From: Candidatus Woesearchaeota archaeon
Lineage (GTDB): Archaea > Nanobdellota > Nanobdellia > SCGC-AAA011-G17 > UBA489
Assembly: GCA_018302985.1 (NCBI GenBank)
Contig: JAGVZA010000015.1
Span: 1,471 to 65,470 of the forward strand
Reading direction: 5' to 3'
Length of the DNA: 64,000 nucleotides
A program made the translations under genes and the position numbers. Numbering within the stretch: the stretch's first letter is position 1; the number at the start of each line of letters is the position of its first letter. A model generated the notes under the pieces. It had not been told where the DNA came from and did no database searches. It saw only the letters and a list, made by a program, of their open reading frames with translations. Positions 25,891-48,793 of the stretch are shown here, piece by piece.

Positions 25891-25906
25891 AGTACTTATT
25901 GCTAGT

Positions 25907-26647
25907 CTAATTTTTAGGCGCGACCCTTCGGTCTCGCTGGACTACTTGTACCCGACCGTGAGCAACCGAAAACAAAAGCCATTGTTCTTCGCAACCCAGG
26001 ACGTTCCTGCCCCTAAAAGCCCTACGGAGACCAGATTGATCACCAGGAACAAATACTTTAACACCTTTTTCATTGTCTTGTGTTTCAACTAGTGTTCTTG
26101 TTTTAGAATCATAACGCACTCTTGTTTCTTTTGTAAGATAAGGAGCTTCAATTACTTGCTGGAGTTCAGTTTCTACAAAAGTAAATTCATCATGACCTTT
26201 GCTTGCTTTCTTTACCCCTAGACCTGTTACGAAGAAAGGAGATATAACCTGCGATCTACTTTTTCCGAGAAGATCTAATACTCTTGCTGCTAAATTTTTA
26301 TTTTTTCCTTCTTTTGAAAAAAATGTAATTGCATTTGTATCGGCAATTGTTGTGTCTCGTTCAGGAATACTATCGAAATACTGGACAACGTCTACTGGAC
26401 TAGCTACTTGAATTCTGCCGTTAGTAAGTTTGTAAAGAATTTGGTTGTAGCTTAAAGCTCTAGGGACATTTGAAAATCTAATAGGTTGATTTGGTTTATA
26501 TTCTGTAGTGTCTGCTATAGGTGTTCCTGCAAATTGTTCATTGTGAAGTCTGACTACTGCTTGACCTAATTCATCATAGAGGAGATTAAAAATTTGTGGC
26601 TTATGAAAACTATAAGTTGCAAATGGGGAGATTGATTTACGTGTCAT
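25907..26647 (-). CDS. hypothetical protein (family shared with 31739-32467?)
   Basis: 246-aa ORF, uninterrupted in an AT-rich background, with a conspicuously GC-rich 3' portion (25907-26040). No known motif. Confidence 0.5.
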   Translation of the reverse strand: MTRKSISPFATYSFHKPQIFNLLYDELGQAVVRLHNEQFAGTPIADTTEYKPNQPIRFSNVPRALSYNQILYKLTNGRIQVASPVDVVQYFDSIPERDTTIADTNAITFFSKEGKNKNLAARVLDLLGKSRSQVISPFFVTGLGVKKASKGHDEFTFVETELQQVIEAPYLTKETRVRYDSKTRTLVETQDNEKGVKVFVPGDQSGLRRAFRGRNVLGCEEQWLLFSVAHGRVQVVQRDRRVAPKN

Positions 26648-26895
26648 GGTATTCCTTATTTTTATTATGGTTTTTGATGCCTTTGCCTATTTAAAGCTTT
26701 CTATTGTAGTTACTTAAAAGTGGTATATTAATTGCGTGGATGTTTCCTATTTATCCGTTTCTTACGTCATTTTTTCGGCAGTGAGTTCTTTTTTCGCAAT
26801 AGTTGAGCAATTTTTCAGAAATTATCCGACTGGACTCTCTTTATTTTCGAGATTTTACTAGTAAAGTAGTTAACAGTTGAAACACTCATTCTATT

Positions 26896-27171
26896 ATGGA
26901 AAAGTTTATAACTAGTACATGCTTCATGCAGAATGCAATGATTGTTGAATTAAGCAAGGGTCGGCAGATCACTATTCCTGCTGAAATTAGAGAACAATTA
27001 AACCTGAAAATAGGGTCAAAATTAGAGATAACTAGAAGAAAAGATGAGATCATTTTAAAACCCTTGGGAGAAGGTCTAGAAAAATTGTTCGCTGAGGCAA
27101 AAACCTTGAAACCAAAACATAATCTTAGTCCTCAACAAATGGATGATTTGAACGAAAGGATGTTGCGATGA
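26896..27171 (+). CDS. vapB: VapB antitoxin (AbrB/SpoVT-type)
   Basis: IVELSKGRQITIPAEIREQLNLKIGSKLEI is a swapped-hairpin motif. ATGA overlap with the PIN gene. The start is possibly at 26938. Confidence 0.75.
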   Translation: MEKFITSTCFMQNAMIVELSKGRQITIPAEIREQLNLKIGSKLEITRRKDEIILKPLGEGLEKLFAEAKTLKPKHNLSPQQMDDLNERMLR

Positions 27172-27539
27172 AATTTCTTGATAGTAATGTTCTTGCTTAT
27201 GCTTTTTATAGTAATGAACATACACAACGATGTCAAGAGATTATTCGTGAAGGAGGATTAATTAATACTGCTAATCTGGTTGAAACTTACAATATTCTTC
27301 AATTTGAAACAAGTCTTGAACGTGCTGCTGCTGCTGTCAAAGAACTTCTCAAATCTAACTTAAAAGTTGTAGACTTAGATATTAATCTTGTTTTTGAAGC
27401 ACTCAAAAGAACTACAAAACATCAACAATTAAAATTTATGGATCTAATTCATTATGTTACTAGCCTTCTTTATAATTGCAGTGAAATTATAAGTTTCGAT
27501 AAAGATTTTGATAATTTAGAAATTCCTCGAACTACTTAA
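27168..27539 (+). CDS. vapC: VapC PIN-domain toxin
   Basis: MKFLDSNVL... with acidic residues spaced as in PIN domains (D5, E, D near ISFDKDF). 123 aa. Confidence 0.85.
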   Translation: MKFLDSNVLAYAFYSNEHTQRCQEIIREGGLINTANLVETYNILQFETSLERAAAAVKELLKSNLKVVDLDINLVFEALKRTTKHQQLKFMDLIHYVTSLLYNCSEIISFDKDFDNLEIPRTT

Positions 27540-28357
27540 ACAGTCAATTCCAAACAGATTCTAGAAACACCTGGGCTATATCTACCACATTCCACAAGAT
27601 TTACTTTCTTGAACCGTCGTTGATAGGCTTTCTTGACAGCTCCAAAGTCATATTCACTGACAAACATATAGAGATAGATTTTTCCCTTGGGTTTTAACTT
27701 AGCCAATGCTAAATCAAGATAGTCTTCAGCTTTTTTTGGGAGAGGCAATAAAATTTTATTAAAGGTTTCTTTTATTTTAGGCATTATTTTTTTGACATCG
27801 CCTTGTTGTACTACAACGTTTTCTAGTTTATTTATTTTAATATTTTCTAGAGCAAATGTATGTGCTTCTTTATTCACCTCTATGCCATATACTAAACTAG
27901 GTTGAGCATTTTTTGCAATGACGCAAGGAAAAGGGCCAACACCTGAAAACATGACTAATACTTTATCTCCTTTCTTGACTTGTTTTGCTACACGTAAACG
28001 CTCAGTCGCAGTTCTCGTAGAGAAATAACAGGTTTCAACGTTTAAACGTAAAGATATACTGTTTTCTTTATGGAGTGTTTCTTTAGTTTTTTCACCTGTA
28101 ATGATAGCAATCTTGGGAGTTCTGTACTTTCCAGTGTATTTACCAGTTTTTTTTGCGACTGTTTTTATATATGGGTTTAATTGCATTAAAGTTTCTGCAA
28201 TGAGCTTTTCTTTTTTCTTCAACTCTTTAGGAAATTCATTGAAAATTGCGATAGACCCAACCATGTCAAATGCTCGAGGCACTAGTTCAAGCTCTTTCTT
28301 GTTCAGTTTCTTTTCCAAAGCTTCGTAGAGTCTCATTTTCTGTTGCCTGTTAGCCAA
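27536..28357 (-). CDS. trm5: Trm5/Tyw2-family tRNA methyltransferase (Met-10+ like)
   Basis: PRAFDMVGSIAIF N-terminal motif. SAM-binding VLVMFSGVGPFPCVIA and the NLP-type region LLPLPKKA. Confidence 0.7.
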   Translation of the reverse strand: MANRQQKMRLYEALEKKLNKKELELVPRAFDMVGSIAIFNEFPKELKKKEKLIAETLMQLNPYIKTVAKKTGKYTGKYRTPKIAIITGEKTKETLHKENSISLRLNVETCYFSTRTATERLRVAKQVKKGDKVLVMFSGVGPFPCVIAKNAQPSLVYGIEVNKEAHTFALENIKINKLENVVVQQGDVKKIMPKIKETFNKILLPLPKKAEDYLDLALAKLKPKGKIYLYMFVSEYDFGAVKKAYQRRFKKVNLVECGRYSPGVSRICLELTV

Positions 28358-30344: not shown

Positions 30345-30998
30345 GTGATCCATGCAACTACGATGAACCATAGTGGAGGGTTTTATTGCTATAGAGTGCA
30401 TGAGCCTAAACTTAATGGGTTATGTGCGTCCAATGGTTTTTTATCTGTCAAGAATTTTTTGCAACAAGTTTTCCATGAACGACCCGATGCATATTTTAAC
30501 AAAGGACCAAGAAGCAGCATGTTAAAATTCAAATTACCTTGTGATCCTCTCCAAGTACAGGGCCATGAAGTTTCTACTTTAGCACGGTTAGGACTAGAAT
30601 TAAATAAAGAACGCTTCAAAGATGCTCATTCTCAAGTGCAGATGTACATGCTCGAAAATGATCAAAATACTGTAGCCATGGAAGTCCCTCTCTGGCTGGA
30701 AAAAGAAGAATTAGAAAGCTACAAAAAAATTATGGAAAGCACACAACCTTTGACAGGACATATTGATGTTTTACGTGTTGAAGGAGATAAAGTCTGGATA
30801 TGGGATTATAAACCGAATGCTCATAAAGAAAAATTTGCTGCAACTCAAGTCTATTTCTATGCCTTAATGTTAAGCAGAAGAACCAACCTGTCTTTAGATC
30901 ATTTTAGATGTGGTTTTTTTGATGCTAAAACTGCTTTTGTGTTTCAACCTACACAACAACTTATTACGAAGAATATGGAACTAGCTGCCTTTACTTAA
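30345..30998 (+). CDS. PD-(D/E)XK-superfamily nuclease-like protein
   Basis: GHIDVLRVEGDKVWIWDYKP (D...D-x-K) followed by QVYFYALML (Q..Y), as in RecB/Cas4-like nuclease cores. Confidence 0.5.
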   Translation: MIHATTMNHSGGFYCYRVHEPKLNGLCASNGFLSVKNFLQQVFHERPDAYFNKGPRSSMLKFKLPCDPLQVQGHEVSTLARLGLELNKERFKDAHSQVQMYMLENDQNTVAMEVPLWLEKEELESYKKIMESTQPLTGHIDVLRVEGDKVWIWDYKPNAHKEKFAATQVYFYALMLSRRTNLSLDHFRCGFFDAKTAFVFQPTQQLITKNMELAAFT

Positions 30999-31742
30999 GA
31001 CTATTTCTTCAAGCGTCTGCATGAACTTCTGCATATGATAAGGAGTTCTGTTGTTTTGAGGAACGATACCTTTTGGATTCTCTTTAGTAGGAAAGTTTTT
31101 TTGCCATACTTGTTGCAATGCTTGATAAGTTACATCACTTAACTTACCATCGACTGCTAAAAGATTTTCAGGATTCTCTTCATTGTAGATTTCTTGAAAT
31201 TGTACTATTGCTCTTCTGGATTCTCTACCTAAATCTCCATCTAATTGTAGTGCTGTTCCAAGAAGATCATTTAATTGTTGTTGTATACGTGCATTTTTAG
31301 GTGCTAATCTGCCTGAGTTATAAGCTGCAACAGCTAAAGAAACATTTCCATAAAATGCAAAATTGTCTTGTAAGAGTCTTTCTCCATAGGCTCTATTAAT
31401 CTCTGGTTGTAATAAACTTTGTTTGATTTCTTCAGGAGTTGTTCCTAAGCGTGGTAAGTCTTCATGTTTTTTTTCTAATACTCTAGCAGTTTGTGTTAAA
31501 ATCTGCATTGATCCATAACTAGTATCATTAATGTGAGGCTCATATCTCCGTGCTTTAGGGTTACCGTGAGATTCTATTTGAATAATTGCATTGACTACAT
31601 ATTGATCTATAGTGGTAGGCATATAATTATTTTTTTGTTGCTCGACAGATGTTTTTTCAATTTGTCGTTTTCCTGGAAGATCATGGAGCAAGGTTATTCC
31701 CCCTCCGACTACCAAAGCAGCCACTAAACCATACATTTTCAT
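30981..31742 (-). CDS. membrane-anchored lytic transglycosylase (SLT domain) with C-terminal peptidoglycan-binding domain
   Basis: SLT motifs IIQIESHGNP...SYGSMQI...AYNSG. PG_binding_1-like LQLDGDLGRESRRAIVQFQ...LAVDGKLSDVTYQAL. N-terminal TM. Confidence 0.8.
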   Translation of the reverse strand: MKMYGLVAALVVGGGITLLHDLPGKRQIEKTSVEQQKNNYMPTTIDQYVVNAIIQIESHGNPKARRYEPHINDTSYGSMQILTQTARVLEKKHEDLPRLGTTPEEIKQSLLQPEINRAYGERLLQDNFAFYGNVSLAVAAYNSGRLAPKNARIQQQLNDLLGTALQLDGDLGRESRRAIVQFQEIYNEENPENLLAVDGKLSDVTYQALQQVWQKNFPTKENPKGIVPQNNRTPYHMQKFMQTLEEIVLSKGS

Positions 31743-32467
31743 TTTCTTAATCTACTCCTCTCTAATAATTCTAATGCTTTAATATGCTTATCTCCAATAG
31801 ACTCTATTTCTTTTTCTAAATTTTGTGTACCTTCGGCGCTTGCGTTACGTACCCCAGCAAATCGACCGCCGCCAAGGCCGCTGAGGCCACCGAGGCTGAG
31901 GCTGCCAACGCCCAGAAAGAGCAAACGCGCCAAAGGTGAATTTTTGTTAAGATCGTTAGCATGCCAGATGCCAATCTCATCTTTGTTATATGCTTTTGCG
32001 TGTGCTTGTAAATAGCGTGCTACACGTGCTTGACCGTCTAATATAGCAATAACTCGTGGATCTTTTTCTGCATCTTTAATGTTTATAGGATCTGATGGCA
32101 ATTCTAACAATTTACGATGAGGAATAACAAGATGTTGATGTTGTGCTGCTGCTAAAGCATATATAGTATCAAACATTATCTGAGGAAAACGACCAGCACC
32201 ATTTACTAAACCTTGCATGTTTGCTTGTTGAAGACCATAAGGCGTTGCAAAATCAGTTTGCTGATGCCAATAAATAGTGAAAGCTTCTTTTTCTCCTGTT
32301 GGTATTCCTGTAACTACAAGACTTGGTGTAGTAATAAATCTATTCCAGGGCAATTCTCCTTCTAAACGAGCATCTACTGCTTGAGGCATATAAAGTGCTG
32401 TATGCTTTTTCTGACAGTTTGCAAGAGCTTGTTCTATACGATCATGATGGAATAATTCTACTTTCAT
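31739..32467 (-). CDS. hypothetical protein, translationally coupled to the lytic transglycosylase
   Basis: 242-aa ORF whose stop overlaps the downstream start by 4 nt. GC-rich Gly/Leu/Ser tail (GVGSLSLGGLSGLGGGRFAGV). Confidence 0.5.
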   Translation of the reverse strand: MKVELFHHDRIEQALANCQKKHTALYMPQAVDARLEGELPWNRFITTPSLVVTGIPTGEKEAFTIYWHQQTDFATPYGLQQANMQGLVNGAGRFPQIMFDTIYALAAAQHQHLVIPHRKLLELPSDPINIKDAEKDPRVIAILDGQARVARYLQAHAKAYNKDEIGIWHANDLNKNSPLARLLFLGVGSLSLGGLSGLGGGRFAGVRNASAEGTQNLEKEIESIGDKHIKALELLERSRLRK

Positions 32468-32544
32468 TTTATTACTCTATAGTAGTTAATAGTATATAAG
32501 GATATTGGTTAGTTATTTAAACCCCTATCTGATTTTTAAGGATT

Positions 32545-33971: not shown

Positions 33972-36674
33972 CTAACCTAAATAACTTGGTCTTTGTGCAA
34001 CGACAGAAGCAATCTTTGCCTTTCTCAAGTATTTTTCTTCCACATCTTTATATCTCTTGAGATCTTCTTCTTTTAATGATGGAGAAACTTTCTTGAGCGC
34101 TTCTTCGAAATCTGCAGCAGTTACTTCATTAGCTTCTGCATTCTTACGCAGGGCATGCATAGCTGCTTCCCTAACTAAACCATAAATATCTGCACCAGAA
34201 TAACCTTCTGTTTTTTCTGCCAACTTGTCAATGTCAACATCTTTAGTTAGAGGCATTTTTCCTATATGTACTTTTAAGATTGCTAGACGAGAGTCTTTAC
34301 CAGGCATAGGCGCTGCAATAACGCGATCGAAACGACCAGGACGCAATAAACTAGGATCTACTAGATCTGGGCGATTAGTTGCTGCAATAACAACAACGTC
34401 TGCTAATTCTTCTAGACCATCCATTTCTACCAACATGGTGTTGACTATTCTTTCTGTGACATTTGAACCTGAATCTGTACCTCTTCGCGGAGCAACAGCA
34501 TCAATTTCATCAAAGAAAATAATTGTCGGAGCAGTTTGACGAGCTTTCTCGAAAATCTTTCTGACTGCTTTTTCTGATTCTCCTACCCATTTACTTAAGA
34601 CTTCTGGACCTTTGACTGAAATAAAATTAGCTTCAGATTCATGAGCAACAGCCCTTGCTAACATAGTCTTACCAGTACCTGGAGGACCGTAGATAAGAAT
34701 ACCACGAGGAGGCTTGATACCTAAGCGTGAGAACATTTTTGGATTTTTTAGAGGCCATTCTACAGCTTCTTTCAATTGTTGTTTTAGTTCTTGTAAGCCG
34801 CCAACATCTTCCCACGTAGTGGTTGGTCTTTCAATAAGGACTTCACGTAATGCAGAGGGACGAACTATTTTTAATGCTGCTCTAAAATCTTCTGCAGTGA
34901 TGACTAACTTAGCCAATACTTCTGGAGAAATTTTTTCACTTTCACCCTTTAAATCTGGCAGTACTCGACGGATAACATTCATAGCAGCTTCTTTGCATAA
35001 TGCCTGCAAGTCTGCACCTACAAACCCGTGTGTGATATCTGCCAATCTCTCAAGATCTTTCTTTGCACTCTTATCTCTTATTTTATTAAAAAAGTTTGAG
35101 TTTATGATTTTGAATTCCTTTAAATCTTTTATAATAATTTCATAATTTTCAGAAAGTTTTGCCTTTTTCTTTTCTAAGAGGATACTCCTTGCTTCTCCTT
35201 CTTCTATTTTTACTTTATTTGTTTCTATTTGTGAAATTTCTGTAATGAGTTCGTTTAACTTGTCTTTTTTTATAAATAATTCATGGTAGCCTTCTATTTT
35301 TTCTATTTTTGAGATCAAGCCTGTAATAACATTAGTTAGCTTATCTAATAGGGATTTCTCTCCTGCTTTTTTTAATTTTAAATCATTAAGTTGTTGTTCT
35401 GTTTTTTCTCTTTCTATTTTATTTTCTTTTAGATAACTCTCTAATTCATGCAATAATTCCTTTCCCATTATTTCTTTATCTAGTTGCCCTTCGATAGGCA
35501 TATTTCTAGTGTGGATCTTTAAAACATTTAGTCTACCAGCTTTGTTTGGGACACCAATAGATATTTCTCGATCAAATCTACCTGGACGTCTGAGTGCGGG
35601 ATCAATAGAATTAGGACGATTGGTTGCTCCGATAACGACGACACGACCACGACTTTTTAGTCCGTCCATAACCGTTAAAAGCTGCGAAACCATACGACGT
35701 TCTACTTCGCCATAAGTTTCATCGCGCTTTGGTGCGAGAGCATCTATTTCATCAATGAATATAATGGAAGGAGCATTTTTTTCTGCCTCTTCGAAGAGAT
35801 CGCGAATTCTTTTTTCTGTTTCACCGTAGAATTTGGAAGTTAATTCTGGACCATTGACTAGTAAGAAATTTGCTTCAGATTCATTAGCGACTGCTTTTGC
35901 CAATAAGGTTTTACCAGTACCTGGAGGACCATAAAGCAATACTCCTTTTGGAGGTTCGACGCCGAGACGTTCGAAAATTTCTGGATTCTTAATAGGAAGT
36001 TCAACCATTTCTCGAAGTTTTTTAATTTCTTCTTCTAGACCACCAATATCTTCATAAGTTACATCAGGAACACGTTCTTCAGTTACTTGCACAGCTTTGG
36101 ATGAAACTTTGACTTCAGTATTTTCTGTGATGATTACTGCAGTTTTTGGCGTTGTCTCTGCAACAATAAATTTCAGACTACCAAAACCAAAATTGCCCAT
36201 GAATCCTTCTTCGAATACATTAAAAATATCATCGAAATTAGAGCCAGATAAGGTTCTTCTTCTTCGACGTGCACCGCCTAAAGAAATAATATCTCCTTTG
36301 ACTACTGCTCGCCCTAATAATCCTTGCTTGAATAATTCATTATTGGCCTGGATCATAACTCCTTGTTGTGCTGGAGCTATAGTAATGGATTTTGCTTCAC
36401 GAACTTCTAATTTTCTTACTTTAACAGTTTCTCCAATACCAGTTTTAGCATTACGTCTGAGAATACCATCCATACGAATAATAGTTTGACCAATGTCTGA
36501 GGGATAAGAACGATCTACAATACCAACTGTTTTACGACCACCTTCAATTTCAATAATATCTCCTGCTCGAACATCAATTTGGCGCATAGTTTGCGCATCA
36601 ATACGCACAATACCTTTATACGCTTCTTCTTGCAAAGCTTCTTGTACTTTGAGCGAGATTTCTTGTTGTGTCAT
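33972..36674 (-). CDS. cdc48: CDC48/VCP AAA+ ATPase with a roughly 145-aa coiled-coil insertion in D1
   Basis: N-domain, two GPPGTGKT Walker A motifs and two DEID Walker B motifs. 900 aa. The insertion lies between KIHTRNMPI and [13 protein letters not shown] (nt about 35055-35492). Confidence 0.95.
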
Positions 36675-41066: not shown

Positions 41067-42627
41067 TCTTATCCCTCTTTATGTTGAACTTAGATATGAC
41101 TTGCTTATAAACTTTCTCTATTTTTGTAGGAACTTCATAACGCACTTTAAGATTTTCCAAGACTGGCAGAGTTCTCTTTATTGCTGAAATTTTTTCCATA
41201 TATTTATCTAATTTAATGTGGTATGTAGGATCATCAATAGATCCTGTTGAAAAGCGATCATCTTGTGATTTTTTAATAAGATCTATTAACACTTTATTTT
41301 CTAACTCAAGGTCTTCTATTTTTCTTGTTACTCTTAGGAGCCTCATTCTTCTGAAAAGAACAGGCCCGAAAACGATGCTACAAATAATTAGGAAAGATAA
41401 AGAGAACTTATGTTTTCTTATAAATCCAGTACTCTCTTTTGCTAGGACTCCGGTCACTGCCAAACGAGCCAAACCAAGCTCCAAGGATGAATCTGCCTTG
41501 CTCAACAGCGTTTCTGCCTCATCGTAACGCTCTTCTGAGAATGACTTCAAAGCATCATTATATGCATTTGTTGATTCTGAAGTGTTAACTCCACGCTCAT
41601 TATAAAACCCTAGTTTTTTGTAGACATTCTCAAATGTAGCATTGATTCTATAAATCTGTATAGTAGTATAATTTATCTGAGAGATAATCCCTTTTATGGA
41701 GACAAAATCAATCCCAACATATTCATCTCCTGGCTTCCTTTCTACATTTCTTTTAATATTTTTTATAAACTTGATATAGTCTGTGTCATTCTGAATCTCA
41801 TCCCATTCTAGAATGTCTTCAAAATAAGCAACATATATCTCCTCTTCAGCTGAGACATAGACGTCAGTCAAGAAGTCTGTTGAAAAATTATTTGATCTTA
41901 TCTCCTCCAAGATCTTATACCCTTCATATACTTTATCTACACTCTTAATGTCCATTTTTACCTTTATCTTTATTGCTGTCTCCCTCGCAAGATCATATTT
42001 CCAAAACTCATAAAATGCGGCCATCTGTTCTGATAGTTTTTTGATGTCTTCTGTCACGACTTCTGTGTCGTTGAATTGTTTGTTTACTTCTTCAAAAATA
42101 AACTCATAAAGAGATCTAATCTCATAAAGCTCGTCTTTTCTTTTTTCAAAATCACTCGAGATATTCTTTAATAAGTTATAGTCTTTGCCAAACAATGATT
42201 TCTTGCCATTTGTCGGAAGAATATATTCTATCATTCTCATTCTTCTCTCATCTGTTGACTTTCTGTACTTTATACTGATATCGAGCATAATATCAGAAAA
42301 ACTCTTTTGGAGGATCATAGATCTCATTTCAGCAACATAATTCTCTATAAGCACATCTGTAAAATTCTCTCGCTTAAGATACTTCAATTCATTTTCTGCT
42401 GTGAGCAGCAATTCGATCATTTCCAACTGCTTTTCATTAGGAACACTTGCTACATCAAGAAGACCCTCTTCCTTAGATTCTTGCATGATTTGTTCTTGAT
42501 CTGCTAGCACTATAGAACTTGCAACCAAGATAATGAAAAAGACAAAGACAAAACTTTTTTTTAATAGAACTACTCTTTTAGATGTTGTCTTCTTTTCTTC
42601 CGAAAAACTCTTCATTTTCCCCTCCAC
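41053..42627 (-). CDS. bitopic membrane protein; helical ectodomain, TM, cytoplasmic tail paralogous to the giant protein tail
   Basis: N-terminal TM/signal FVFVFFIILVASSIVLA, a long helical region, then TM FSLSFLIICSIVFGPVLF. The tail motif is QDDRFSTGSIDDPTYHIKLDKYMEKISAIK. 16-nt overlap with the giant gene. Confidence 0.55.
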   Translation of the reverse strand: MEGKMKSFSEEKKTTSKRVVLLKKSFVFVFFIILVASSIVLADQEQIMQESKEEGLLDVASVPNEKQLEMIELLLTAENELKYLKRENFTDVLIENYVAEMRSMILQKSFSDIMLDISIKYRKSTDERRMRMIEYILPTNGKKSLFGKDYNLLKNISSDFEKRKDELYEIRSLYEFIFEEVNKQFNDTEVVTEDIKKLSEQMAAFYEFWKYDLARETAIKIKVKMDIKSVDKVYEGYKILEEIRSNNFSTDFLTDVYVSAEEEIYVAYFEDILEWDEIQNDTDYIKFIKNIKRNVERKPGDEYVGIDFVSIKGIISQINYTTIQIYRINATFENVYKKLGFYNERGVNTSESTNAYNDALKSFSEERYDEAETLLSKADSSLELGLARLAVTGVLAKESTGFIRKHKFSLSFLIICSIVFGPVLFRRMRLLRVTRKIEDLELENKVLIDLIKKSQDDRFSTGSIDDPTYHIKLDKYMEKISAIKRTLPVLENLKVRYEVPTKIEKVYKQVISKFNIKRDKNEGV

Positions 42628-45600
42628 TTAGGAGGCAGATTTTTCCTAACTGCATCAACTTCTTTTGCTGTCTCTGGGAAGTAGGCTTTCAACTCTGCTT
42701 CAGATAATCTTCTTACATCTGCTCTCTTTTTGATATTCTCCTTGTTCTGTTGTTGGTTCTTTATAGACTGATCTGGTTTCTCAGGCAATCGCTTAGGTGG
42801 CAAACACATACTTTCAGGTTCTTGTTTTTTGAAGACGTTCCTCTCTCTTTGAGGCTGATCTTTTGTCACAAAAATACTTCTTTCTTGTTTCAGCGATTCT
42901 TGCTTCTTCTTTCTAAAGATTATCGACTTTATCCTCTCAACTAGGTTTCTTATAAAAAATCCCTTCTTTCTCTGATCAGCCCATGTTTGCTGAGGCATAC
43001 TAGAGGATATTTCTTTTCTTTCAGACTTAACTCTCCTTATAAGATTAATTCCTTTTTGTATACCTATCAGACTTACTCTCTTTATAAAAACAGTAAAATC
43101 AATTGTCTTCTGCACTATCTTTCCTTTAGTCGTTGTTTTTCTAGTTATATTCTTCTTCTGTATTTTGGCTTCAAGAATTGCACTCTCTTCTTCTATTTCT
43201 ACAAGGCTTCTTCTAATAATTCTCATTTCATTTTCAAAATCTGTCTTGGTAATATCCTTACGAACATAATACCTCTCCTGAAGCGCCTTGAGATTATTAG
43301 AAACGATTTCTTTCTCTTTCTGCACCTTCGCCAACTCTTTAGTAATGCTAACTACATATCCTACTCTTTGTGTTCTTAATTTTCCTTTCAATTGTTGAAT
43401 AGCACTCAATCTTCTTTCATAGTGCTCCTTATCCCTATGGAACTCATAATCACTAATATCTTTGGTTACATAATATCTATCTTGATTCTCCTTCAAGAGC
43501 TTGTGGATTGTCTCCTCCTCCTTTTCATAATTCTTTTTCCTGAATTCAATAATCAAAGTAATAATCTCCACATAGCCCATATAAGAACCAGCACATAAGA
43601 GAGCAAGGAAGAATAGTATCGCCCACCAATAATTTATAACAAATTTAATAATGTTAATTCTGCTCTTGGTCTCCAAAATATAAGTAAGCTGGGCTTCATT
43701 CAATGATTGCAAAGCAACATCGAAATCTTCTCTTGCAAAAGCTTCTTTGGCTACATTAGCAAGCTGTCTTGTTCCTGCTATAACTATTCCTTTCTTATCA
43801 GCCTCTTTTATTTTAAGATCTAAGTCTTTTAGAAGTTCTAAAGACTTGAAAGATTTCTCTTTCTTATCAAGAATTTGCTTTGCTAATTGCCCTGCCAGCT
43901 TAAATTTTCCATCTCGATAAGCTTTTTTAGCTTGTTCTAAGATTACAATACTTCTACTTACGGGTATTTGCTGCTGATCCATCTCGACAATTGCTTTTTC
44001 TGCCTTGTCTATAGCTTCCTTAATCTCTTCTTCAGATTCTTCTTTAATCAATAAAGTTATAATTCTTTTATCTGTAAGTGTTCCTTTTTGTCCATTCGCT
44101 GTAACTTCTGCTGTAATCAATGCTTCGAGCGTGTAAGTACTTTCTTCAAGATATCTTGGAGCGTCTACTTGAATTCTGAATGCTTTTGTTTCTTTATATC
44201 CTATATTAGTTAATGTTCTTGACAATACTTTAATATATTTTGTCAAAAATCCAGTAATCTGTATATTAGCCTCATTAATTACAGATCCTGGTTGAATATT
44301 GTTAACCTCTAATATGAATTCATTACTTCTTCCTCTTTCCAAGGTTATAGTCTTAGAACTTTCAGATCTAAAGAGGGATTGAGAACTAATAATTCCTCCA
44401 CCACCGCCTCCACCACCGCCTCCACCTCCACCTCCACCTCCACCGCTGCTACTAGCTCCACTACTCGCTACTTCATTAGAACAATCTGCATCTACAGCTC
44501 TAAAACATCCAGAACCGCAAACACCATCTGCACCATTACAGTCTACGCTTAAATTATAAGACAAAGTATCATTATTTGATTCAGACAAACCAGTAATATT
44601 CAAGAAAGTATCTGTTCCATTTTGATCGTAAGTAGTAGTTGTACCTACAATCACTGTGATATTATTATATAACAAGTCATTAACGCCTAAAGTATCATTT
44701 GATACTGATAGATTTCCAGAACTAATTGAAAATCCTGTAGGCAAGACCCATGCAACAGACACATTATCTACAGTATCATTTCCGACATTTTTCGCATATA
44801 CTTTGTAAGTTTCTACAGATGATTGTTGCACGCCAAATGATCCTTCTTCAAAAGTTAAGTCTATGTAAGGTCCTGGAGAAATTGAAGTCAAAGCCGCAGT
44901 AACATTCTCAGATTCAGGAGAGGTTGTTTGATTTTCATTTGTCGCATTAACCATAATATTAATAGTGTCAGATTGAGATGTTGAAGCTCCTGTCGCATTT
45001 ATCTCGACAGTAAGCGTCTCTCCTGGCTGCAATTCCACAGGCATAGTCTCATTAAAAAAGATCAAAGCATAATCCGCAATAATTGATGTGAAATTGATAG
45101 GAACATCTCCAGTCACATTGAATATGAATATTCCTAAAGAAGTATTCTCACTGAATTGAGCAAAACTTTCCCCCAAATCAGTAGGCGTTACGTTCCATGT
45201 ATAATCATAATCGATAACTACATTTTGTATAGTCCCTACATTCTCATTTCCCGCAGTATCATTAGCGAAAACAGTATAGTTAATAGTCCCATTTCTGTCT
45301 GGAGTAAATGAAACATTCTCGAATAAAGAAGCCCCGCTATTAAACACTAGAGTTGTATTTGTAAATTCAGTTTCATTGTCATATTTCCAAGAAAAGATCG
45401 CTGTATCTACAAGAAGCGTAGCATCAGAAACATTCGCAGTTATATTAATAATTAATCCAGGATCTAGATATTCTACATCGCTCGGACTTAAAGTAATCTC
45501 ATTGATTACTGGTCCTGCAGTATCGACATTAAAATTTGTTGTTATTGACTGATTTTCATTGGCCGCATCGTCATTACAAAGAATATAACCCGTGTGCCCC

Positions 45601-48600
45601 CCATTAGCGACACTAGTTGCTGCAAGTGATGTTGATGTTCCGTTGTCTACAGAGCTATTCGTAGTGGTGATAGTATTATCTATAAAAAATGTACAGTTCA
45701 GCAGTGTGTCTAGAGCATCAGTAACAATATATGTGAAAGTGACTGTACTGGAAGTTATATTATCGAGATTATTAGGATTACTAATGACTATATTAGGTTC
45801 TACAGTATCTACAGTGAAGATAATATACTCACTTTGTAAGTTTCCTGTTGTGTCATTGGCATAGACTGTAATATTATTTTCACCCTCTATACTTGTGAGA
45901 GATACATTTGTACAACCATTTACAGTCGTGTTTACAGCAGCGCTATTCAAATCATAAAAACACTGATCTACTTCTAAGTCATCTGAAACGCTGATATTTA
46001 ATTCTACTGTTGAAATATTAAAAAAACTTCCATTGGTTGGGTTGACAACACTAAGAAATGGGACAACGACATCTCCGATTTCTAAAAATGCCTGAAAAAA
46101 ACCAGAAATTCCGGAAAAATCAAAGTAAACTATTCCTCCTCCTGCTGATGCCCTGTCTACACTGATAGAAACATTTCCTGAATAGTTGAGACCTTGCTGA
46201 ACTACTAACCCTTGACTAAATGTATTGTCATTATTAGGCGTAGTATCATATCCGAATACAGATGCTGATGAACCTGAGGAGAGGACTCGAGTTATAGCAT
46301 CTACAGAAGCAAAATAAATTCGTGAAACATTATCAAACCACACTATCGCGAAATCTGAATTTGTGACACTTTCTACTTGAGTGACGCGAAGAGTTGTATT
46401 ACTTAAGTTAGCTGAATAGACATTGATAAGGTCTGCGTCGCTACTTGTACCTATCTGTGTACTAGTCAGAGTACCGTCATTTCCTGTGGTGCTGCTAGAA
46501 ACATCCATAGAACCTGCAGTGCTGGTGAACTCTACAGTAACTCCAGATACATAATCTCCAATGACTAGATGTGCATCGACGCTTGCAGTTGTAAGAGTTG
46601 TAGCGATTGCAATTTTATCGCCTTTTGCTTCAGTATGTGGTACTATTATCTGAACACCTTCAGTAGTGTTTGTCTGTAATAATGCACCTATAGCAGTTAT
46701 GACAACACCACTCTCTGGCGTAGTATCGCGAAGAGTTGTAGTATATATTGAAGAATTAGTCAGTGTATTTGTCGTACGATTGACTGTTACCATGCGAACA
46801 CGCTGCTGTGAACGGTCATACCAAGCATAAGAAATATCAGTTGCACCAACATCATCTTCTTCAGTGATAATTTTTCTTATTCCTAGAGCGCCACTTTCTA
46901 CAGTAATAGTATTACCGAGAGCACCGCCAGTCTGGATGCTTGTTACTACACCATCAGGACCAGTGTAACCAGTTGTAACGCTCATGGATCCAGCAGACGC
47001 AGAAAAGTTGACTTCTATACCTTCGAGACCAGTACCATCAGCATCTGTGACTACTGCAGTCACATTAGGATTTACATCACCGTCAGCATATGCAAAAAAA
47101 CGATTTAAAGAATTTTCTGTAAATATACTCAGACCGTCATTTCCTGGTGTTGTAGTAGTGATACCTATCTGAATAAAATCATCACTAGTTACTGTTCCCC
47201 GAGGAATATAGATGCTTGCGGCAGAAGTATTTGTCTGAGGTTCTACTGAACTGACACTGACACAGGTTTGCAATGCAACTGCACAGTTCTTCGGAGTCCT
47301 ATCGAAGACTGTTGCACTTACTGTATTTGCCGTTACCAATACATTGTAAGTATCATCTCGTGTTTTTGAAACTGTTGCACTATAAAGTACAGATTCGACT
47401 GGATCATACCACTGGAATGCCCGCGCATTCGCATCAACAACTAGTGAGAGATTAGTGTAGATGTAGACAGACTGATTGATATCTGTAGCATTCACTACAA
47501 TAACATCGCCTACAGCGCCTCCGCTTTGTGTGCTTGTCACAGTACCATTATATTCAGTAACTCCAGAATCAATACTCATGGATCCAGCAGACGCAGAAAA
47601 AGAAATAGCAGCATTTTGCACAGCCGTACCATTCTCATCAGTCACCACAGCCGTCACTATAGGATTAGCATCGCTTGTAGCGAATGCAAATAAATACTGC
47701 TTTGATGATGGGTCTGTTCGCAGTCGAATAAAATTGTCTGGAGAGAAAGTTGTTGTACCTACATCTACGCGGACACGATCATTATCGCGGTAACTTCTTG
47801 GCGTCAGAGTAATATTACTTGGAGTACCTTGTGTCGCATTTTGTTCATATGCTGGTTCTCCTGAAATTGTTGCTGAAAATAAGGGGTATGTTGCAAAGCT
47901 ATCCAGAGTATATGTTGTGGTGGTAGCTCCAGCGAGCACTTTTGTTGTTGTATTTACTGTTACAGTATAGGCTACCATCAGATTACTGTCAAACCATGTA
48001 TAAACTGTATCTGGAGCAGCGACATTTATTGATTCATTAGTTATAACAGCAATATCTGTCAAGTTATCTGAACTAACAGTAATAGTATCCCCCAATGTAC
48101 CTCCAGATTGTGTTGAGGAAACTGTACCATCTAGACTAGTTACTCCTGACGTCGGAGACATTGTACCTACACTTGAGCTGAAACTAACTGTTATATCTGG
48201 AATACCATAACCATCACTATCAGTCACCACAGCAGTCACTATAGGATTAGTACCATTTGTTGCAAAAGCAAAAAAATTCGTGGCATTATTTTGAGCAGCT
48301 ACAGTATTGATATCCGTTAGCGCTGATTGATTAATAACTATAGCAGCATCAAGGACTGGTGTAGTCGTACCGTAGAATATGTTCACAATATCTCCAGAAG
48401 AAAAATTAACTGGTGTAATATTCGCTGAAAAATTATTAGACTGCTGAAAAATGTCAGTAAAGAAACCAGTTGTATTATTAGGAGTATTATCTGATAAAAT
48501 AAATGCTGCTGCTGATGTAGTCACTATTGTCTTTGTCAATCGAGTGATTGGTATTGTCAATAAATTATTTGTACTGACATCATACCATGCTACTGCAGTG

Positions 48601-48752
48601 TCTGCTGCTGCAAGTGCTGCAAATGCGCTTGAGAGTACTGTAATGTTACTTAAATTTGCTGCATAGACATGAATAAGGTCTCCTATACTTCCATCTATCT
48701 GTGTACTAGTCAGAGTACCGTCATTTCCTGTGGTGCTGCTAGAAACATCCAT
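42612..48752 (-). CDS. giant surface adhesin, C-terminal 2046-aa portion (Big_1/invasin-like repeats, Ig-like N-glycosylation-rich domains, Gly17 linker, TM, 311-aa cytoplasmic coiled-coil tail)
   Basis: Repeats of NP.VTAVVTD..G.....I.FS.S.GSMS...G.T...G.V.S.Q.GG.(L/V)G. Many NxS/T sequons. CNGADGVCGSGC. TM VINYWWAILFFLALLCAGSYMGY. The ORF begins mid-domain with no signal peptide. Confidence 0.8.
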   Translation of the reverse strand: MDVSSSTTGNDGTLTSTQIDGSIGDLIHVYAANLSNITVLSSAFAALAAADTAVAWYDVSTNNLLTIPITRLTKTIVTTSAAAFILSDNTPNNTTGFFTDIFQQSNNFSANITPVNFSSGDIVNIFYGTTTPVLDAAIVINQSALTDINTVAAQNNATNFFAFATNGTNPIVTAVVTDSDGYGIPDITVSFSSSVGTMSPTSGVTSLDGTVSSTQSGGTLGDTITVSSDNLTDIAVITNESINVAAPDTVYTWFDSNLMVAYTVTVNTTTKVLAGATTTTYTLDSFATYPLFSATISGEPAYEQNATQGTPSNITLTPRSYRDNDRVRVDVGTTTFSPDNFIRLRTDPSSKQYLFAFATSDANPIVTAVVTDENGTAVQNAAISFSASAGSMSIDSGVTEYNGTVTSTQSGGAVGDVIVVNATDINQSVYIYTNLSLVVDANARAFQWYDPVESVLYSATVSKTRDDTYNVLVTANTVSATVFDRTPKNCAVALQTCVSVSSVEPQTNTSAASIYIPRGTVTSDDFIQIGITTTTPGNDGLSIFTENSLNRFFAYADGDVNPNVTAVVTDADGTGLEGIEVNFSASAGSMSVTTGYTGPDGVVTSIQTGGALGNTITVESGALGIRKIITEEDDVGATDISYAWYDRSQQRVRMVTVNRTTNTLTNSSIYTTTLRDTTPESGVVITAIGALLQTNTTEGVQIIVPHTEAKGDKIAIATTLTTASVDAHLVIGDYVSGVTVEFTSTAGSMDVSSSTTGNDGTLTSTQIGTSSDADLINVYSANLSNTTLRVTQVESVTNSDFAIVWFDNVSRIYFASVDAITRVLSSGSSASVFGYDTTPNNDNTFSQGLVVQQGLNYSGNVSISVDRASAGGGIVYFDFSGISGFFQAFLEIGDVVVPFLSVVNPTNGSFFNISTVELNISVSDDLEVDQCFYDLNSAAVNTTVNGCTNVSLTSIEGENNITVYANDTTGNLQSEYIIFTVDTVEPNIVISNPNNLDNITSSTVTFTYIVTDALDTLLNCTFFIDNTITTTNSSVDNGTSTSLAATSVANGGHTGYILCNDDAANENQSITTNFNVDTAGPVINEITLSPSDVEYLDPGLIINITANVSDATLLVDTAIFSWKYDNETEFTNTTLVFNSGASLFENVSFTPDRNGTINYTVFANDTAGNENVGTIQNVVIDYDYTWNVTPTDLGESFAQFSENTSLGIFIFNVTGDVPINFTSIIADYALIFFNETMPVELQPGETLTVEINATGASTSQSDTINIMVNATNENQTTSPESENVTAALTSISPGPYIDLTFEEGSFGVQQSSVETYKVYAKNVGNDTVDNVSVAWVLPTGFSISSGNLSVSNDTLGVNDLLYNNITVIVGTTTTYDQNGTDTFLNITGLSESNNDTLSYNLSVDCNGADGVCGSGCFRAVDADCSNEVASSGASSSGGGGGGGGGGGGGGGGGIISSQSLFRSESSKTITLERGRSNEFILEVNNIQPGSVINEANIQITGFLTKYIKVLSRTLTNIGYKETKAFRIQVDAPRYLEESTYTLEALITAEVTANGQKGTLTDKRIITLLIKEESEEEIKEAIDKAEKAIVEMDQQQIPVSRSIVILEQAKKAYRDGKFKLAGQLAKQILDKKEKSFKSLELLKDLDLKIKEADKKGIVIAGTRQLANVAKEAFAREDFDVALQSLNEAQLTYILETKSRINIIKFVINYWWAILFFLALLCAGSYMGYVEIITLIIEFRKKNYEKEEETIHKLLKENQDRYYVTKDISDYEFHRDKEHYERRLSAIQQLKGKLRTQRVGYVVSITKELAKVQKEKEIVSNNLKALQERYYVRKDITKTDFENEMRIIRRSLVEIEEESAILEAKIQKKNITRKTTTKGKIVQKTIDFTVFIKRVSLIGIQKGINLIRRVKSERKEISSSMPQQTWADQRKKGFFIRNLVERIKSIIFRKKKQESLKQERSIFVTKDQPQRERNVFKKQEPESMCLPPKRLPEKPDQSIKNQQQNKENIKKRADVRRLSEAELKAYFPETAKEVDAVRKNLPPKWRGK
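44394..44444 (-). repeat. (GGN)17 coding tract = Gly17 linker
   Basis: Plus strand is TCC/ACC/GCC x17, in frame within the giant ORF (SSSG17IISS). Confidence 0.9.
46451..46549. repeat. 99-bp perfect repeat, copy 1 (in-frame, internal to the 2046-aa ORF)
   Basis: Identical to 48695-48793 by manual alignment. Encodes (V)SGVTVEFTSTAGSMDVSSSTTGNDGTLTSTQI. Confidence 0.9.
46874..47072. repeat. 199-bp repeat (6 mismatches) with 49128-49326
   Basis: Manual alignment. Both copies encode NPNVTAVVTDADGTGLEGIEVNFSASAGSMSV.TGYTGPDGVVTSIQTGGALGNTITVESGALGIR. Confidence 0.85.
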
Positions 48753-48793
48753 AGAACCTGCAGTGCTGGTGAACTCTACAGTAACTCCAGATA
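48695..48793. repeat. 99-bp perfect repeat, copy 2 (spans the junction of the two giant ORFs)
   Basis: Identical to 46451-46549. Identity ends at 48793, exactly where the reading frame changes. Confidence 0.9.

Follow-up and report, generated by a model that had tools for sequence, protein, structure and literature searches.

AvpA serves a diversity-generating retroelement (DGR) of Nanoarchaeota as its variable protein, and its fold is that of a C-type lectin (CLec) (PMC5006420). Its residues 181-203 form the binding site and are rewritten by adenine-mutagenic retrohoming from a template repeat (TR). The initiation of mutagenic homing (IMH) sequence encodes an RFxGV strand, ~46 residues follow the variable region (VR), and a DNA hairpin lies just past the IMH; the function of AvpA was stated as unknown (PMC5006420). 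Murein-degrading enzymes have also been described from DPANN archaea. Woesearchaeota lytic murein transglycosylases were reported from Lake A metagenome-assembled genomes (MAGs) and read as evidence of attack on bacteria (PMC9723730), and the same source cites an earlier Woesearchaeota genome, AR20, for a murein transglycosylase. Peptidoglycan hydrolases occur widely in archaea, with Nanoarchaeota prominent, and activity has been shown in one case (PMC12352652). Here we analyze a 64,000-nucleotide stretch (hereafter the window) of contig JAGVZA010000015.1 from the MAG of a tiny groundwater archaeon, Candidatus Woesearchaeota. In it, a gene almost certainly belonging to the AvpA family ends on the start codon of a putative lytic transglycosylase (SLT) gene.

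The best explanation for this pair is a two-gene operon of a Woesearchaeota (DPANN) archaeon. As a whole, our reading comprises an exported SLT, an AvpA-family lectin uncoupled from its retroelement, a lectin subfamily linked to exported hydrolases at one chromosomal slot, and cooperation of the two proteins. We give it a probability of about 0.55.

The gene pair and its products

The two minus-strand open reading frames (ORFs; Table 1) share the ATGA at 31739-31742 and match two NCBI proteins exactly, both from a Candidatus Woesearchaeota MAG: MBS3144822.1, annotated as a DUF1615 family protein (253 aa), and MBS3144823.1, annotated as a hypothetical protein (242 aa). Across five independent assemblies, drawn from several samples, the 1,487-nt pair does not vary; in a sixth, 1 base at the start codon is different. 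The locus is no assembly artefact, because the same two genes recur in six independent assemblies. Chimerism with bacterial DNA is dismissed; the window holds archaeal genes for FEN1, MetAP, CDC48, GNAT, TYW2, the small and large subunits of RFC, topoisomerase, and IleRS, and its MCM has an archaeal winged-helix domain.

Pfam, NCBIfam, and PHROGs gave no match for the 242-aa protein. A word-indexed homolog search found 8 relatives, and a full profile search found 441 related clusters, 133 of them below 1e-30. The family profile (positions 4-249) aligned with residues 4-250 of AvpA in PDB 5IOO at E = 1.2e-73, spanning 246 of the 255 residues of that structure. The AlphaFold2 (AF2) model is moderate (pLDDT 69), and Foldseek returned one strong match for it, 5IOO_A (E = 8e-11, TM 0.65/0.74), with 31% identity and a root-mean-square deviation of 2.4 Å over 187 columns. 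We judge the protein to be an AvpA family member with near certainty, a call for which sequence alone is decisive. The sequence-only reading that preceded this analysis saw no recognisable domain in it, which holds for the domain databases but not for solved structures. A Gly/Leu-rich stretch (residues 182-200), considered as a transmembrane (TM) segment, was rejected and corresponds to the VR loop of the lectin fold. We did not find other AvpA-like paralogs in the window, or AvpA-like relatives on IMG/VR viral contigs.

The 253-aa protein matches Pfam SLT (PF01464) at 55.6 bits (cut-off 21.3). The NCBI name comes from DUF1615, a related family of the lysozyme clan that scores 30.8 bits. Family-1 lytic transglycosylases are defined by the motifs ES (containing the catalytic Glu), GLMQ, and AYNxG; ES, GSMQI, and AYNSG are present here. 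Glu57 is kept in 21 of 22 aligned homologs, and Ser58, Q80, Y141, N142, and G144 are invariant. A PDB sequence search with the protein alone found no match and the family profile was required, which matches the Slt catalytic domain at E = 4e-3. The AF2 model, built on the homolog alignment, reached pLDDT 89.7. Its best PDB folds in Foldseek were Slt70 (5MPQ), Slt (6FBT, Pseudomonas), MltF (4OXV), and Cj0843, followed by c-type lysozymes (probability 0.98-1.0, E = 4e-3 to 2e-2).

The module that follows the catalytic domain scores 20.2 bits against PG_binding_1 (PF01471) in this protein alone, just below the cut-off of 23. The family profile matched the PG-binding modules of solved structures, namely the L,D-transpeptidase 4LPQ (E = 4e-7), 1LBU (E = 1.9e-6), and the phiKZ endolysin gp144 (3BKH, E = 3e-5). 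Most SLT homologs have a precomputed PF01471 match, and the AF2 helices of the module (147-161, 173-189, and 203-216) have pLDDT 98. A PG_binding_1-type module is thus supported at the family level, as judged by profile comparison. Beyond it lies a C-terminal ENPKG...HxxKF motif, modeled as a helix (pLDDT 95-98), in which P228, H236, K239, and F240 are invariant across the 22 sequences. At the other end of the protein, residues 1-19 are hydrophobic (Kyte-Doolittle KD(19) = 1.69), and many homologs carry an RRxFL motif of the twin-arginine (Tat) type or a TM segment at the N-terminus. The enzyme is therefore predicted to be exported or anchored, with its catalytic part outside.

The SLT gene has a GC content of 0.352 (z = -0.2), and both its GC3 and its codon usage are typical of the window (codon-usage distance 0.90 against 1.11 +/- 0.27). 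All 30 sequence-detectable homologs carry DPANN names, each genomic context that was fetched is archaeal, and synteny with archaeal housekeeping genes extends to at least 7 related genomes. Among viral contigs, only three distant phage SLT domains were found. NCBIfam IagB matched the protein at E = 3e-4 and 20 bits, against a cut-off of 208. The gene resides in a DPANN-wide family and is no recent bacterial import. Very likely, its product is an anchored, exported GH23/SLT enzyme with a PG_binding_1-type module, native to this archaeon and acting on the murein of a bacterial neighbor.

Much of this had been proposed from the letters alone. The two ORFs and their overlap, the SLT domain with its catalytic Glu context, the N-terminal anchor, and the archaeal, non-chimeric contig all stand, and a bacterial-murein substrate was a reasonable suggestion. 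The PG_binding_1 claim holds for the family profile and falls short for the single protein. Recent bacterial transfer, which had been offered as one explanation, did not survive the GC and codon check or the finding of homologs only in DPANN contexts with conserved synteny. The novelty was also overstated: archaeal and Woesearchaeota murein hydrolases are already published (PMC9723730, PMC12352652), and the murein hydrolase half of the finding is correct but already known.

Variable region and retroelement cassettes

In gene positions 541-630 of the lectin (window ~31838-31927), every 30 nt include 1-6 adenines, and GC is 57-77%, against 36% for the genome. Codons 187-202 are NNY in 15 of 16 cases versus 106 of 226 elsewhere in the gene (Fisher p = 1.7e-4), and adenine makes up 8% of them versus 35% elsewhere (p = 3e-5). 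Adenine-poor NNY codons are what AAY codons resemble after adenine mutagenesis. The VR flanks, GGCGCGTTTGCTCTTTCTGGGC (5′) and GGGGTACGTAACGCAAGCGCCGAAGG (3′), equal the VR flanks of homologs in other MAGs over 21-35 exact nt, and these homologs are only 45-66% identical as proteins. The flanks also equal those of VRs with adenine-only mismatches to their TR in L005, L011, and L019 (relatives are cited by L numbers).

Canonical cassettes (L005, L011, L013, L014, L019, and L021) consist of an AvpA-like gene followed by a structured RNA, the TR, and a reverse transcriptase (RT) gene. All VR/TR mismatches over ~95 nt in L005, L011, and L019 sit at TR adenines, and the L014 RT matches RVT_1 at 80.5 bits. 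The RNA is Rfam RF03019, “RT-16” (69-92 bits in the 4 loci scanned: L005, L011, L014, and L019), with covariation in 14 of 31 predicted pairs. These proteins are therefore a genuine DGR target family, and the window copy bears the scar of the DGR process.

The window copy itself is probably retired, that is, uncoupled from the DGR and effectively frozen. An ungapped, adenine-aware scan of the 64-kb window for a TR with three VR lengths gave nothing above background, and a general repeat search found nothing at the locus. Neither a YxDD motif scan nor phmmer with an intact cassette RT found an RT in the window; RT-16 (RF03019) had no match there, the Rfam gathering scan yielding one tRNA only. 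One TR-specific pattern scan of JGI metagenomes returned L011-type and L019-type TRs and one chance match, but no fitting TR. No RT homolog lies on the 147,062-bp contig among the 120 matches listed of 1087. Of those listed, the nearest one in the same sample series, P0192, comes from another species (~80% nucleotide identity). The cassette of that species sits between TRAM and RFC-S, and the corresponding site in the window is empty.

The target itself has also changed. The hairpin GCGCC-GAA-GGCGC is intact in L004, L005, L006, L009, L010, and L011 and has compensatory variants in L016 and L019. It reads GCGCC-GAA-GGTAC in the window, with its 3′ half destroyed, and is broken in all five hydrolase-linked copies. 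The window VR is 2 codons shorter than every TR found and, at the consensus level, is identical across six assemblies from different samples. Three points weigh against retirement. The window searches for TR, RT, and RT-16 covered 64 kb of the 147-kb contig; one read-level protein variant carries S189I inside the VR (plus W67C outside it); and the perfectly kept VR flanks argue for recent homing. If the copy is retired, the locus documents how a DGR target leaves its retroelement, by tail replacement at the hairpin and then decay.

Several further features of the cassettes were observed. RT-16, an RT-associated motif of unknown role, lies directly 5′ of the TR in four DPANN DGR cassettes, between it and the AvpA-like gene (L005:8008-8153, L011:10038-10194, L014:10793-10945, and L019:1008-1179). 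The cassette RT genes break into two overlapping frames, in each case precisely at a poly-G tract (G7-G10), in L005:8796-8838, L011:10822-10882, L019:1824-1903, L021:11554-11639, and L013:11764-11815. The tract lies just 5′ of the GxPLGNLTSQ motif in 4 of these 5, and the genomes are AT-rich where measured (the window is 36% GC). The L014 RT is intact at 358 aa, with no frame break, and the RT homologs are mostly only ~190-260 aa among the 120 listed of 1087. Slipped-strand switching of the retroelement on and off could account for the frame breaks, as could a homopolymer error in assembly. A degenerate TR-like copy at L008:1039-1190 (= L004), ~440 nt 3′ of a VR, has many non-adenine mismatches and no RT near it. 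This looks like a decayed cassette; the MAG that carries it has at least 5 AvpA-like paralogs (L006-L010).

The hydrolase-linked subfamily

The gene pair occupies a slot in a conserved block that runs MetAP(-), slot, PDDEXK(-), FEN1, EamA, TYW2. Slot contents vary among relatives. An AvpA-like gene stands with SLT in the window and in L042 (a 1.2-kb contig, so that the block is not verifiable), with an NlpC/P60 gene (38.7 bits) in L003, and with the gene of a 225-aa exported protein, probably NlpC/P60-like, in L001/L002 and L041. SLT is alone in L028, the nearest relative, and in L029. A 45-codon, in-frame AvpA-like remnant precedes SLT in L043. The 225-aa protein conserves Cys74, His177, and His194. 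Its phrog_329 match (E = 7e-5) covers the profile region that the L003 NlpC/P60 protein also matches, and its CHAP match is at E = 0.14. It had no PDB sequence match, and hhalign against the L003 NlpC/P60 was negative.

The lectins of this slot share a C-terminal helical tail, which we call type B, with the pattern (T/S)LE(E/D)(S/T)(I/L)E.I(G/A).... It occurs in exactly 5 of 157 family representatives. A hidden Markov model (HMM) of the tail scores 58-78 bits for the five hydrolase-linked copies, and none of the other 152 representatives exceeds 8.5 bits. All five type-B lectins are encoded directly 5′ of an exported wall hydrolase, whether SLT, NlpC/P60, or NlpC/P60-like. The tail starts exactly where the 3′ half of the hairpin is expected. 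The subfamily probably arose by recombination at the hairpin, which would explain both the new tail and the lost homing competence.

Recombination has also acted on the hydrolases. In both L001 and L041, the 225-aa protein has the same anchor, MNRLAK(A/S)(I/M/L)LGISL..., as the L042 SLT, which implies that the catalytic domain was replaced behind an anchor that stayed. From SLT codon ~53 on (up to window 31583), the window and L028 share 98.7% identity; from 32462 on, across MetAP, the intergenic region, and the first codons, they share 92.5%. Between these limits the window has ~880 nt, comprising the lectin ORF and a different anchor, where L028 has 156 nt and SLT follows directly after the shared putative promoter and start codon. 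The unit gained or lost is therefore “lectin + anchor”, and the same predicted promoter would serve both arrangements. The intergenic region, which is shared with the divergent MetAP gene, is by its sequence the only plausible promoter for both genes, and its homolog precedes SLT alone in L028. We consider it highly probable that recombination exchanged the catalytic domain behind a retained anchor and that the subfamily sits at one slot, its stop codon on the hydrolase start codon.

The L043 remnant (L043:2200-2337) matches the AvpA HMM at E = 5e-6. It keeps the N-terminus of the gene, the final ~9 residues of that gene's type-B tail, and its overlap of 4 nt with SLT, and it looks as if coupling to SLT translation is what is retained.

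Table 1. Features of the lectin-transglycosylase locus, in window coordinates.
Feature	Position	Strand	Basis
Exported lytic transglycosylase gene, 253 aa	30981..31742	(-)	ORF; SLT 55.6 bits; ~30 DPANN homologs
C-terminal motif ENPKGIxPxNxxTPxHxxKF	31008..31079	(-)	22-sequence alignment, AF2
PG_binding_1-type three-helix module, residues 153-209	31116..31286	(-)	Pfam sub-cut-off, family profile, AF2 helices
SLT/GH23 catalytic domain, residues 44-152; Glu57 codon 31572-31574	31287..31613	(-)	Pfam, motifs, Foldseek
Strain-variable segment: AvpA-like ORF + first ~53 SLT codons (anchor, linker)	31584..32461	(-)	L028 comparison
N-terminal hydrophobic signal/anchor, residues 1-22 (MKMYGLVAALVVGGGITLLHDL)	31677..31742	(-)	KD(19); homologs; low pLDDT
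AvpA-family C-type-lectin-fold gene, 242 aa	31739..32467	(-)	Profile vs 5IOO; Foldseek; 441 related clusters
Stop/start overlap ATGA (4 nt)	31739..31742	(-)	Sequence; equally in L001, L041, L042, L043
Type-B C-terminal helical tail, residues 214-242	31742..31828	(-)	Tail HMM; predicted helix 217-241
Degraded homing hairpin AGCGCC-GAA-GGTACA	31826..31840	(-)	Intact form GCGCC-GAA-GGCGC
DGR variable region + IMH-like end, residues 179-213	31829..31933	(-)	A-poor, NNY codons, GC 60-77%, matching flanks; RFAGV beta5 motif (residues 202-206)
Variable codons 187-202	31862-31909	(-)	15/16 NNY, 8% A
Intergenic region, shared with divergent MetAP gene	32468..32544	.	TTATATA ~35 nt 5′ of ATG

AvpA-like genes were seen in other settings as well. 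L015, from the nearest relative MAG and 95.9% identical to the window over EamA-TYW2, has another one (L015:1837-2568) where the window (25893-27543) has MazE-PIN and a 246-aa ORF; AvpA-like genes mark strain-variable islands. An AbiEii gene and a gene of ~196-201 aa precede the AvpA-like gene in canonical cassettes (L033:7586-9702, L011:7889-10005) and also the AvpA-like remnant in the L043 SLT slot (L043:916-2337), and a similar pair lies beside SLT in L029:1291-2589. This AbiEii-196aa-AvpA block may move as a unit. Protein P0040 (925 aa) has two tandem AvpA-like domains fused to a ClpX-like AAA+ ATPase (AAA 59.8 bits, AAA_2 53.3 bits), which hints at a role for some AvpA-type lectins in choosing intracellular clients for an unfoldase.

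Elsewhere in the window, two adjoining giant ORFs of 2046 and 852 aa (42612-51297, minus strand) contain Ig-like repeats of the Big_1 type, along with DNA repeat families of ~590 nt (D1-D4). Their products are probably adhesin-like proteins of the cell surface, which may also bear on contact with a partner. The window CDC48 (33972-36674, 900 aa) is without an intein, unlike its L028 ortholog (L028:22-3279, 1085 aa), which has Intein_splicing and LAGLIDADG domains.

Possible cooperation, its rivals, and known systems

In the mechanism we propose, the PG_binding_1-type module would hold the anchored, exported SLT on murein. With Glu57 as the catalytic acid, the enzyme would cleave the bond between N-acetylmuramic acid and N-acetylglucosamine (MurNAc-GlcNAc) in the wall of a bacterial neighbor at the archaeal surface. 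The retroelement would once have written the binding-site loop of the lectin, residues 187-202, by adenine mutagenesis. The present copy, now uncoupled from it, would be effectively frozen, and the type-B subfamily, with its own C-terminal helix, would have become fixed 5′ of an exported hydrolase at the MetAP...PDDEXK-FEN1-EamA-TYW2 slot. The lectin may thus be the fixed product of an earlier DGR-driven search for specificity, non-essential and being lost in some lineages. That it is expressed together with the hydrolase, for which it would supply recognition or regulation, is plausible, at somewhat less than even odds. Adjacency and the gene junction have outlasted at least 2 catalytic-domain replacements, and five intact lectin ORFs (242-255 codons) at 37-55% identity keep a conserved core and a subfamily-specific tail.

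A number of observations weigh against cooperation. The lectin is dispensable, because it is absent (L028, L029) or internally deleted (L043) in three SLT-bearing relatives, and more distant SLT loci have no AvpA-like neighbor. The lectin is under weaker constraint than the hydrolases (dN/dS 0.35-0.77, ~0.5, versus 0.16-0.36, ~0.2). As the five linked copies are orthologous and occupy a single syntenic slot, they do not count as independent associations; synteny extends over the entire block, in which unrelated genes overlap by 4 nt as well. The overlap claimed earlier as translational coupling does exist but carries less weight than was given to it: exact 4-nt overlaps are widespread in this genome, at 7 of 29 same-strand junctions in the window, including that of the functionally unrelated FEN1 and EamA genes. 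The lectin has neither a signal peptide nor a TM segment, and its N-terminus belongs to the fold (beta1 in 5IOO); an extracellular role would therefore need an unknown export route. The P0040 fusion hints at cytoplasmic clients.

Many of these points would also suit a passenger. The lectin may be a decaying former DGR target that was dropped between promoter and hydrolase, co-transcribed but contributing nothing, with selection acting on the hydrolase only. SLT stays intact wherever the lectin is missing or deleted, the hairpin is broken in every linked copy, and AvpA-like genes occupy strain-variable islands elsewhere too (L015); the dN/dS values, the missing export signal, and the common 4-nt overlaps point the same way. 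A relic of this kind would not be expected to persist as an intact ORF with a conserved core and its own tail in five lineages, or to remain adjacent, with junction and anchor kept, through at least two exchanges of the catalytic domain. We regard a mere passenger as possible, and the most credible of the alternatives, but on balance doubtful.

It is unlikely that the window lectin is still an active target whose VR is rewritten in trans by a TR and RT outside the 64 kb, so that its specificity would still be diversifying. Its VR flanks and IMH match those of active-looking cassettes base for base, related MAGs hold several VR-bearing paralogs without an adjacent TR (L006, L009, and L010), related DGRs occur in the same sample series, and the S189I variant falls within the VR. 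Yet the VR is the same in six assemblies from different samples, the hairpin has lost its 3′ half, the VR is shorter than every TR found, no fitting TR was found, no same-contig RT occurs among the 120 listed matches, and this genome has no cassette at the syntenic site between TRAM and RFC.

Less probable again is a cytoplasmic sensor or adaptor, in which the lectin would bind a small ligand (e.g., imported muropeptides) or a protein client and couple digestion to uptake or regulation. Such a role would fit the lack of an export signal, the indifference of the linkage to hydrolase bond specificity (glycosidase or peptidase), and the ClpX-like AAA+ fusion with its implied intracellular clients, but no transporter or regulator is conserved in the slot.

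We think it very improbable that SLT acts on a non-bacterial target such as methanogen pseudomurein, chitin-like glycans, or the envelope of the archaeon itself while a surface structure is being assembled. Lysozyme-fold enzymes can be promiscuous, the partners of Woesearchaeota are not established, and the protein has a weak likeness to secretion-system lytic transglycosylases (the IagB match, far below its cut-off). Against this stand the PG_binding_1 module and the family-1 motifs, which are murein-specific features, and the alternate occupants of the slot, which are NlpC/P60 murein peptidases. Pseudomurein has beta-1,3 links to N-acetyltalosaminuronic acid, and we know of no GH23 enzyme that cuts them. 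Recent bacterial gene transfer or a chimeric contig, for which only domain types typical of bacteria and phages speak, can be set aside given the native composition, the recurrence of the locus in six assemblies, the archaeal synteny in at least 7 related genomes, and detectable homologs that are all DPANN.

A more ambitious form of the cooperative reading is tentative and, at present, rather unlikely: a “lectin plus lysin” module for attack on bacteria. The DGR would first have sought a lectin that recognizes the envelope of a bacterial partner; the selected lectin would then have been frozen and hard-wired to a hydrolase by the overlap, and recombination would swap the catalytic cassette, glycosidase or peptidase, to match the host wall. 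If true, this would be the first functional assignment for AvpA-type lectins and a cellular counterpart of a phage receptor-binding protein with its tail lysin. AvpA-type lectins are the main targets of the DGRs abundant in DPANN archaea, and this locus is, as far as the searchable literature shows, the first concrete genomic context for them; we found no published link between a DGR lectin and a wall hydrolase there. The vague idea that these lectins may aid symbiosis becomes testable by experiment, and the locus suggests that the partners or prey of this Woesearchaeota lineage are bacteria rather than archaea.

Compared with AvpA (5IOO; Handa et al., 2016, PMC5006420; Paul et al., 2015, PMC4372165), the window lectin has full-length homology and the same CLec fold, with the VR ~40 residues before the C-terminus, an IMH-encoded RFxGV beta5, and no signal peptide. 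It carries variants of two of the three AvpA motifs, IYWH for VVYAH and DPRVIAILDG for HPxxxPFxG. Unlike AvpA, it has no TR or RT nearby, a broken hairpin, a VR 2 codons shorter, the type-B tail, and a stop codon that is fused to a wall hydrolase gene. The published DPANN murein transglycosylases (AR20; PMC9723730; PMC12352652) are of the same GH23 type in murein-less Woesearchaeota and are likewise read as acting on bacteria. PMC9723730 and PMC12352652 treat these enzymes singly, with no lectin partner, conserved slot, or domain swapping as seen here.

Other resemblances are more distant. The phiKZ gp144 endolysin (3BKH) has the same modules, PG_binding_1 and SLT, in reversed order, with an N-terminal binding module; it is soluble and phage-encoded, and lacks the anchor and the C-terminal ENPKG...HxxKF motif. 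IagB, IpgF, and VirB1 are likewise small SLT-domain enzymes for local opening of murein, but they cut the producer's own wall, and the window slot holds no secretion-system genes. The pairing of a phage receptor-binding protein with a tail lysin, as in Bordetella BPP-1 with Mtd, the founding DGR lectin, is similar by analogy only: a CLec specificity protein and a wall-breaching enzyme. The window locus is cellular and chromosomal, not part of a virion, and no AvpA-like relatives were found on viral contigs. Thus, each gene taken singly is a member of a known family, AvpA or the DPANN GH23 enzymes. What is new, as far as the searchable literature shows, is their combination: an AvpA subfamily, probably orphaned from its DGR, that is hard-wired to exported murein hydrolases with interchangeable catalytic cassettes.

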